Assembly (NCBI GenBank): GCA_951406725.2
Contig: OX597831.1
Location: 14,384,001-14,448,000 of the forward strand
Origin: Octopus vulgaris
Taxonomy: Eukaryota
Direction: 5' to 3'
Length of the DNA: 64,000 nt
Shown: in pieces, positions 44,903 through 44,983 of the stretch
Layout of the letters: each line of letters starts with the position of its first letter
Position numbering within the stretch: the stretch's first letter is position 1
The notes under the pieces: model-generated
Told to the model about the DNA's origin: nothing
The model's input: the letters and a program-made list of their open reading frames with translations, nothing else
The model's database searches: none
Translations under genes and position numbers: made by a program

Positions 44903-44983
44903 TTTCCTGCTGATGAGAGCGTCGCCAATTGTAAATTATTTTATTTACAAAAGATTGCTTGAAACTATGCATAGTCCAGGAAA
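44903..44983 (+). ncRNA. Type I hammerhead ribozyme motif, nearly intact
   Basis: Stem I TTTCCTG/CAGGAAA; core CTGATGA at 44910-44916; stem II GAGC...GCTT with an inner TTGTAAAT/ATTTACAA hairpin; GAAA at 44961-44964; palindromic stem III ACTATGCATAGT; GTC cleavage triplet ending at 44976. Confidence 0.85.

Follow-up and report, generated by a model that had tools for sequence, protein, structure and literature searches.

Does an 81-nt segment of this Octopus vulgaris DNA encode a self-cleaving hammerhead, and if so, what kind of element left it there, and how would it cut? Throughout, the window denotes the whole stretch of DNA analysed, 64 kb (64,000 nt) in length. The earlier note had proposed a hammerhead at 44903..44983 with CUGAUGA, GAAA and GUC core segments, a 7-bp stem I, a long stem II with an inner hairpin and a self-complementary stem III; all of these parts lie where it placed them, with the inner hairpin at 44929-44950 and the self-complementary stretch at 44964-44975. 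We consider it most probable, at roughly 0.7, that a type I hammerhead occupies a solitary 200-nt stub, itself likely the pLTR end of a Penelope-like element or of a non-autonomous derivative, with cleavage predicted to depend on dimer formation. The parts of the motif are as follows, the cleavage position being predicted from the established hammerhead numbering.

44903-44983, plus strand: whole hammerhead motif, 81 nt
44903..44909, plus strand: helix I, 5' strand, seven Watson-Crick pairs with 44977-44983
44910..44916, plus strand: catalytic box CUGAUGA (C3-A9), read from the sequence
44917..44960, plus strand: helix II region, 44 nt, comprising a 5-bp base, an internal loop and an inner hairpin
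44917-44921/44956-44960, plus strand: helix II base, pairs G-U, A-U, G-C, C-G, G-U
44929-44936/44943-44950, plus strand: inner hairpin of helix II, 8 bp, beyond the internal loop
44961..44964, plus strand: catalytic box GAAA (G12-A15.1), read from the sequence, with no listed variant
44964..44975, plus strand: 12-nt perfect palindrome (helix III), assessed by hairpin and duplex energies and dimer pair probabilities
44974..44976, plus strand: GUC triplet, predicted cleavage 3' of 44976
44977..44983, plus strand: helix I, 3' strand, paired with 44903-44909

All core bases (C3 U4 G5 A6 N7 G8 A9, G12 A13 A14 A15, U16 H17) are present by the definition given in PMC3088659. The topology is that of a type I hammerhead, in which three helices are each paired beside the core and helix I is open-ended, and the pair closing helix II is a G-U wobble. 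That wobble had been described as the only deviation from the consensus; it is indeed at the base of helix II, but a second G-U at the top of the same helix II base makes the description incomplete. The motif also overlaps a putative frame of 26 codons (44913-44993) whose AUG lies within the first core box, and the reading frame of an Anolis element likewise begins inside its hammerhead (PMC11167929).

Chance, profile scores and a snoRNA alternative

Local dinucleotide shuffles of the window exclude a chance origin of the motif: a descriptor derived from the motif itself, stem lengths included, matched 0/200 shuffles, and under the same shuffling an intermediate descriptor matched 1/200 and a loose descriptor 10/200. 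The folding energy of the motif by itself is unexceptional (z -0.69 and -1.76). The comparison with the Rfam Hammerhead_1 model (RF00163), proposed in the earlier note as a check, gave a divided answer. Positions 1-45 of the model are covered by 44904-44982 with every core base matched and 40 nt in the helix II loop region unaligned, but the score of 18.9 bits (E 0.037 in a 223-nt stretch) does not reach the gathering score of 34, and Hammerhead_1 is absent among the matches listed in a 6-kb Rfam scan around the motif. Because 6/6 phage loci with textbook hammerheads, used as a control, also miss the Hammerhead_1 gathering score, we give this shortfall little weight.

A fortuitous resemblance, or a different small RNA closed by a terminal stem (a C/D box snoRNA, for example), would be in keeping with the low z-scores and the sub-threshold profile score, and the Rfam model ceN103 does align to 44904-44982 at 23.3 bits. 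That score is far under the cut-off of 55 (E 0.19) and leaves the 3' part unaligned, and the sequence has no D box (CUGA) ahead of the 3' stem; on the missing D box and the score, ceN103 was rejected. The shuffles do not produce the motif, and its relatives vary in step with the hammerhead helices, as described next. We regard a look-alike or snoRNA as extremely improbable.

Variation among relatives

Relatives came from four public runs, namely X2 and X18 (both organism A, the latter RNA only by guess), X7 (C) and X10 (E), whose contigs were aligned to 44790-45072 at an identity of at least 80%, a filter that biases the variant table toward contigs resembling the window copy; the table lists all but 16 of its rows. 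Part of the region is contained in 20/24 listed runs under five organism labels, of which B and D were left out; runs X9-X20 contain small shares of it, and of these X10 and X18 were aligned.

Listed variants fall at 23 places of the 81-nt motif, and the 11 invariant core positions have none (hypergeometric P 0.019). The only core places with listed variants are the tolerant N7 (44914) and H17 (44976), where the C>A variant at 44976 still obeys the H17 rule, and in helix I the A>G variant at 44982 retains a U-G pair. Listed variants occur on both sides of four pairs in helix II (44918/44959, 44921/44956, 44930/44949 and 44932/44947) and of one in the palindrome (44966/44973). One Watson-Crick combination is possible in 5/5 of these pairs, with changes that are unphased on single contigs and drawn from listed rows, against an expectation that a random double change preserves pairing in 16/36 cases. 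In X10, majority letters are found on both partners at 44932/44947 (93%, 79%), 44966/44973 (75%, 91%) and 44921/44956 (52%, 86%). Four listed one-sided changes, at 44917, 44919, 44967 and 44970, disrupt pairs. Covariation of the stems among genomic copies, the absence of which the earlier note would have counted against a hammerhead, is therefore found in weak form only: compatible changes stand on both sides of all five pairs, qualified by the unphased, listed rows and the one-sided breaks.

The closing G-U pair of helix II had been attributed to CpG decay, which leads one to expect relatives with C at 44960. None is found there among the listed T>C rows, which cover 4/4 (X2), 4/4 (X10), 2/2 (X18) and 5/6 (X7) of the counted places if, as this accounting assumes, the tally counts places above a 5% threshold, and we do not retain the attribution. 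In X10 (organism E) U stands at 44917 in 91% of depth, giving U-U. Relatives one base shorter at 44959-44960 amount to ~15% of depth in X2 and 48% in X7, with none in X10, and a minority of them may, once the register is shifted, have C ahead of GAAA. Because some of these shorter relatives may do so, a canonical subfamily probably exists among the relatives. Among the Penelope hammerheads aligned in PMC4209133, this pair is G-U or A-U in several rows, including Latimeria (1), Lottia, Xenopus (1) and D. willistoni, and natural hammerheads with U-U at the helix II base have been reported (PMC3088659 and PMC7229834). Judged from these sequences, the closing G-U is most plausibly a trait of the family, not damage to the window copy.

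Predicted folding and a proposed dimer model

In the minimum-energy fold of the monomer, computed without tertiary contacts, the first core box is paired with the GUC triplet, and the probability of the hammerhead fold as a monomer is 0.001-0.024 in 4/4 sequence contexts. The palindrome is calculated at +0.4 kcal/mol as a hairpin against -15.9 kcal/mol as a duplex. Two copies together reach -47.1 kcal/mol, compared with 2 x -16.5 kcal/mol separately, and in the predicted dimer both cores are unpaired and the intermolecular helix III has pair probabilities of 0.86-1.0. When the native flanks are added, the predicted dimer retains helix III, and helix I is lost to the upstream U-rich flank. The palindromic helix III is thus predicted by these calculations to favour a dimer.

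In the mechanism we propose, the monomer would be mostly inactive, its core being paired with the GUC triplet, and two copies would share a 12-bp helix III that frees both cores, such that cleavage after 44976 would take place only when two copies pair via the palindrome. Dimer cleavage by Penelope hammerheads is reportedly the subject of a 2017 RNA Biology paper. By analogy with published elements, two pLTRs on one tandem transcript of the parent element could provide the partners, and cleavage would then process the transposition RNA of that element. Tandem-transcript cleavage by pLTR hammerheads has been proposed, with low activity in vitro (PMC4209133), and for an Anolis element protein was required for cleavage, which was dispensable for insertion in vitro (PMC11167929). 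Because the 64 kb analysed hold neither a partner nor a reading frame, the window copy is most likely an inert remnant.

A dispersed repeat family

The motif lies within a repeat whose limits, and whose neighbours on either side, can be drawn as follows.

44858..45057, plus strand: hammerhead-bearing stub from a dispersed repeat family, probably the pLTR or 3' terminus of a Penelope-like element or of a non-autonomous derivative, delimited by contig ends
44790..44860, no strand assigned: terminus of a different, very abundant repeat that overlaps the stub by 3 nt and continues leftward, seen as the highest summed depth
45074..45178, plus strand: (AC)n microsatellite, beginning 16 nt beyond the 3' end of the stub

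The stub is 200 nt long with 34% GC and is present as a single copy in the 64-kb window; its 3' end lies 81 nt from the predicted cleavage site. Among the pieces listed, 6/32 start at 44858-44859 and 5/32 stop at 45056-45057, the majority continuing into unmatched letters, and the bins 45060-45072 have zero contig cover in all four runs. Loose ends behind 44859-44860 in 4/4 runs mark the end of the abundant left-hand repeat, a putative SINE-like repeat, possibly an octopus SINE.

The contigs of the four runs place the hammerhead repeat family in organisms A, C and E. Paralogous contigs are ~80-92% identical to the stub, and some differences are common to many distinct contigs, for example 94, 94, 41 and 8 contigs at 44986 in the four runs. 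Summed contig depth, which does not equal copy number, is maximal over 44980-45020, far exceeding that over helix II, which implies that a much more abundant sister group has only the 3' part in common. The portion shared with these far more abundant relatives is 44970-45030, their helix II is apparently different, and a loose end (agreement ~0.7) suggests that the sister group has a shorter palindrome (~8 nt) and U before GAAA.

Patterns specific to the family have no match in metagenome contigs or GTDB contigs; looser patterns matched 16 viral and 2 metagenome loci, which bear no sign of belonging to the stub family. We found no published description of the family in the literature on hammerhead or self-cleaving ribozymes of octopus or cephalopods, a search whose scope did not extend to Repbase, Dfam or subscription papers. 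Four short motifs are absent from the one supplement of PMC8557442 that was searched, and the O. vulgaris repeat paper (PMC13282606) mentions no ribozyme in its text or supplement.

Penelope-like element or retrozyme

We infer membership among Penelope-like elements, and the kinship draws on the hammerhead type and the context, the defining reading frame not having been found. Pfam searches of 299/315 stop-to-stop frames of at least 55 aa revealed no Penelope RT or GIY-YIG frame in the window and no host gene around the motif above the curated cut-off. A target-site duplication of at least 6-7 nt was not found around the stub, and a tandem copy of it is absent from the 64-kb window. The context is that of a dispersed multi-copy repeat with truncation or inversion near a microsatellite: the (AC)n tract follows the stub, and there is one inverted joint, for which the sole basis is one X2 contig that joins 44859 to 44981 on opposite strands, head-to-head arrangement being confined to the second family described below. 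Hammerheads with a palindromic helix III in pLTRs are mostly single truncated copies (PMC4209133), Penelope-like elements show a microsatellite bias and inverted truncated copies (PMC8557442), and head-to-head inversions and solo pLTRs are described for them (PMC3846280). Penelope-like elements account for 6.83% of the O. vulgaris genome (PMC13282606). Of the retrozyme or PLE origin suggested in the earlier note, then, the palindromic-helix-III type I hammerhead in a multi-copy repeat is borne out, but neither a Penelope frame in the window nor a tandem copy at the locus accompanies it.

The stub could instead be the stray monomer of a non-LTR retrozyme, that is, of a 170-400-nt tandem repeat whose transcripts are cut to monomers, circularised and reinserted via a borrowed reverse transcriptase. 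Its 200 nt and 34% GC fit such a repeat, it has no reading frame, and far more abundant relatives have 44970-45030 in common; moreover, retrozymes are known in a mollusc (PMC7229834), and retrozyme monomer copies are common (preprint 10.64898/2026.07.22.740005). Yet the window locus has no head-to-tail tandem, and no go-back joint occurs within the stub in 4/4 runs, although units longer than 44790-45072 would escape. Nor does the motif have the compact 6-bp/4-bp shape of the canonical metazoan type I hammerheads in PMC4209133. On balance we consider a retrozyme monomer unlikely. Because the same preprint derives retrozymes from pLTRs, the Penelope and retrozyme readings overlap.

Less probable readings: a retained host element and pairing in trans

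Under another explanation the host has retained the motif as an active cis-element, which would cleave a transcript crossing the locus by itself or together with an RNA made from a different copy. The motif has lost nothing of its core, whereas the minus arm of the second family has a core change, and the match of an X18 contig (RNA by guess) covers exactly 44904-44983, with 3 differences. On the other side, no host gene was found around the motif, none of the listed contigs spans 44790-45072, and the monomer is predicted to misfold. X18 records 13 and 14 continue across the cleavage site and the run may contain DNA, and for these reasons the records show neither expression nor cleavage. A retained host element seems to us very improbable.

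Likewise very improbable is a more elaborate scenario, in which a very abundant transcribed lineage would have its solitary copies partner in trans via the 12-nt palindrome, triggering cleavage; palindrome length (12 nt versus ~8 nt in the sister group and the second family) would sort subfamilies, and the covarying inner hairpin would be a new protein-binding or tertiary module. If solitary copies did cut host transcripts in trans, the importance of the family would be greater.

Comparison with known systems

Returning to the Penelope-like reading, the hammerhead would work like the palindromic-helix-III hammerheads of Penelope pLTRs, a kind already described, and its long helix II is its only unusual trait. 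The pLTR hammerheads in PMC4209133 (Aedes, Drosophila willistoni, Saccoglossus) resemble it in type I topology, intact core and a palindromic helix III suited to dimers, as well as in U-rich 5' and AU-rich 3' flanks and in dispersed single copies, and in the Latimeria (1) row helix II opens with the same four pairs. The differences lie in dimensions and register. The published descriptor allows stems of 3-7 bp and loops of 3-10 nt, whereas the window motif has a 44-nt helix II region with an inner hairpin; its palindrome, at 12 nt, exceeds the maximum of 10 among the PMC4209133 rows compared; and unlike the variants in that paper it has no extra nucleotide after A9 in its own register. The published min-HHR descriptor (3-10 nt for loop 2, no helix III) accordingly does not match the motif, just as it misses helix III variants that PMC4209133 itself lists.

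Animal non-LTR retrozymes (PMC7229834) are alike in being non-coding, low-GC repeats with a type I hammerhead. They differ in the tandem array, not found at the window locus, and in the canonical loop 1-loop 2 geometry, which the stub does not show. The axolotl hammerhead HHR_Amex2, from the same paper, has U-U at the helix II base and cleaves better as a dimer; U-U also occurs in relatives of the window motif. The squid genome has 235 Rfam hammerhead 1 matches (PMC6962438).

Type I hammerheads of IMG/VR phages (L001-L016, L017) have the core and the innermost helix I pairs in common with the window motif, a likeness fixed by the search pattern, and we claim no homology. Because helix III is a stable GC-rich hairpin in the clear phage cases, which also have C before GAAA, these would fold as monomers. 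Several of the viral and metagenome contigs (L001-L017) bear intact type I hammerheads below the Rfam gathering score (6/6 tested).

The two hammerhead-bearing repeat families of the window add to a kind described across animals. Standard searches would miss the stub family, because neither its long, apparently covarying helix II nor its 12-nt palindrome fits the published descriptor. The stub hammerhead offers a clean natural substrate for tests of dimer-dependent cleavage.

A second hammerhead family and other features of the window

The second family lies 2.8 kb from the first hammerhead.

47518..47651, minus strand: inverted arm, with the motif at 47642-47595 and an A6>G core change
47757..47890, plus strand: plus arm, with the motif at 47766-47813, an intact core and a GUA triplet

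The arms are 88% identical over 134 nt and stand head-to-head with a 105-nt spacer, flanked by a (TG)n tract and a CA-rich tract; in the plus arm, helix III is an 8-nt palindrome and the helix II base holds a U-U. There is no meaningful similarity between this family and the first (best blastn E 0.15). By its resemblance to published elements, this head-to-head pair is the clearest Penelope-like structure in the window.

A further inverted pair, 9651-9785 / 9944-10078 (135 nt, 91% identity), has a CUGANGA box in each arm and is possibly a third hammerhead-bearing inverted stub. The sole window match to the published min-HHR descriptor is at 9996. Loose descriptor matches at 9991, at 59839 and, on the minus strand, at 44620 were set aside, their helices being weak or implausible.

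Other repeats in the window include a MITE-like inverted repeat at 45309-45433 / 45664-45788 (125 nt, 97% identity), situated between (TA)n tracts and with ends that resemble 15953-16016. A non-LTR retrotransposon fragment occupies 16950-18019 on the minus strand beside (TACA)n arrays; its segment 17211-17786 (minus strand) matches 25 proteins at 37-48% identity, many with the RT domain PF00078, and the fragment is presumably of the CRE-like type with a restriction-like endonuclease. A mariner (Mos1) transposase HTH_48 fragment lies at 20777-21064 on the minus strand (E 6e-14), and a 360-420-nt repeat is present in three copies, at 24835-25198, 42248-42671 and 52662-53082, with 90-92% identity.
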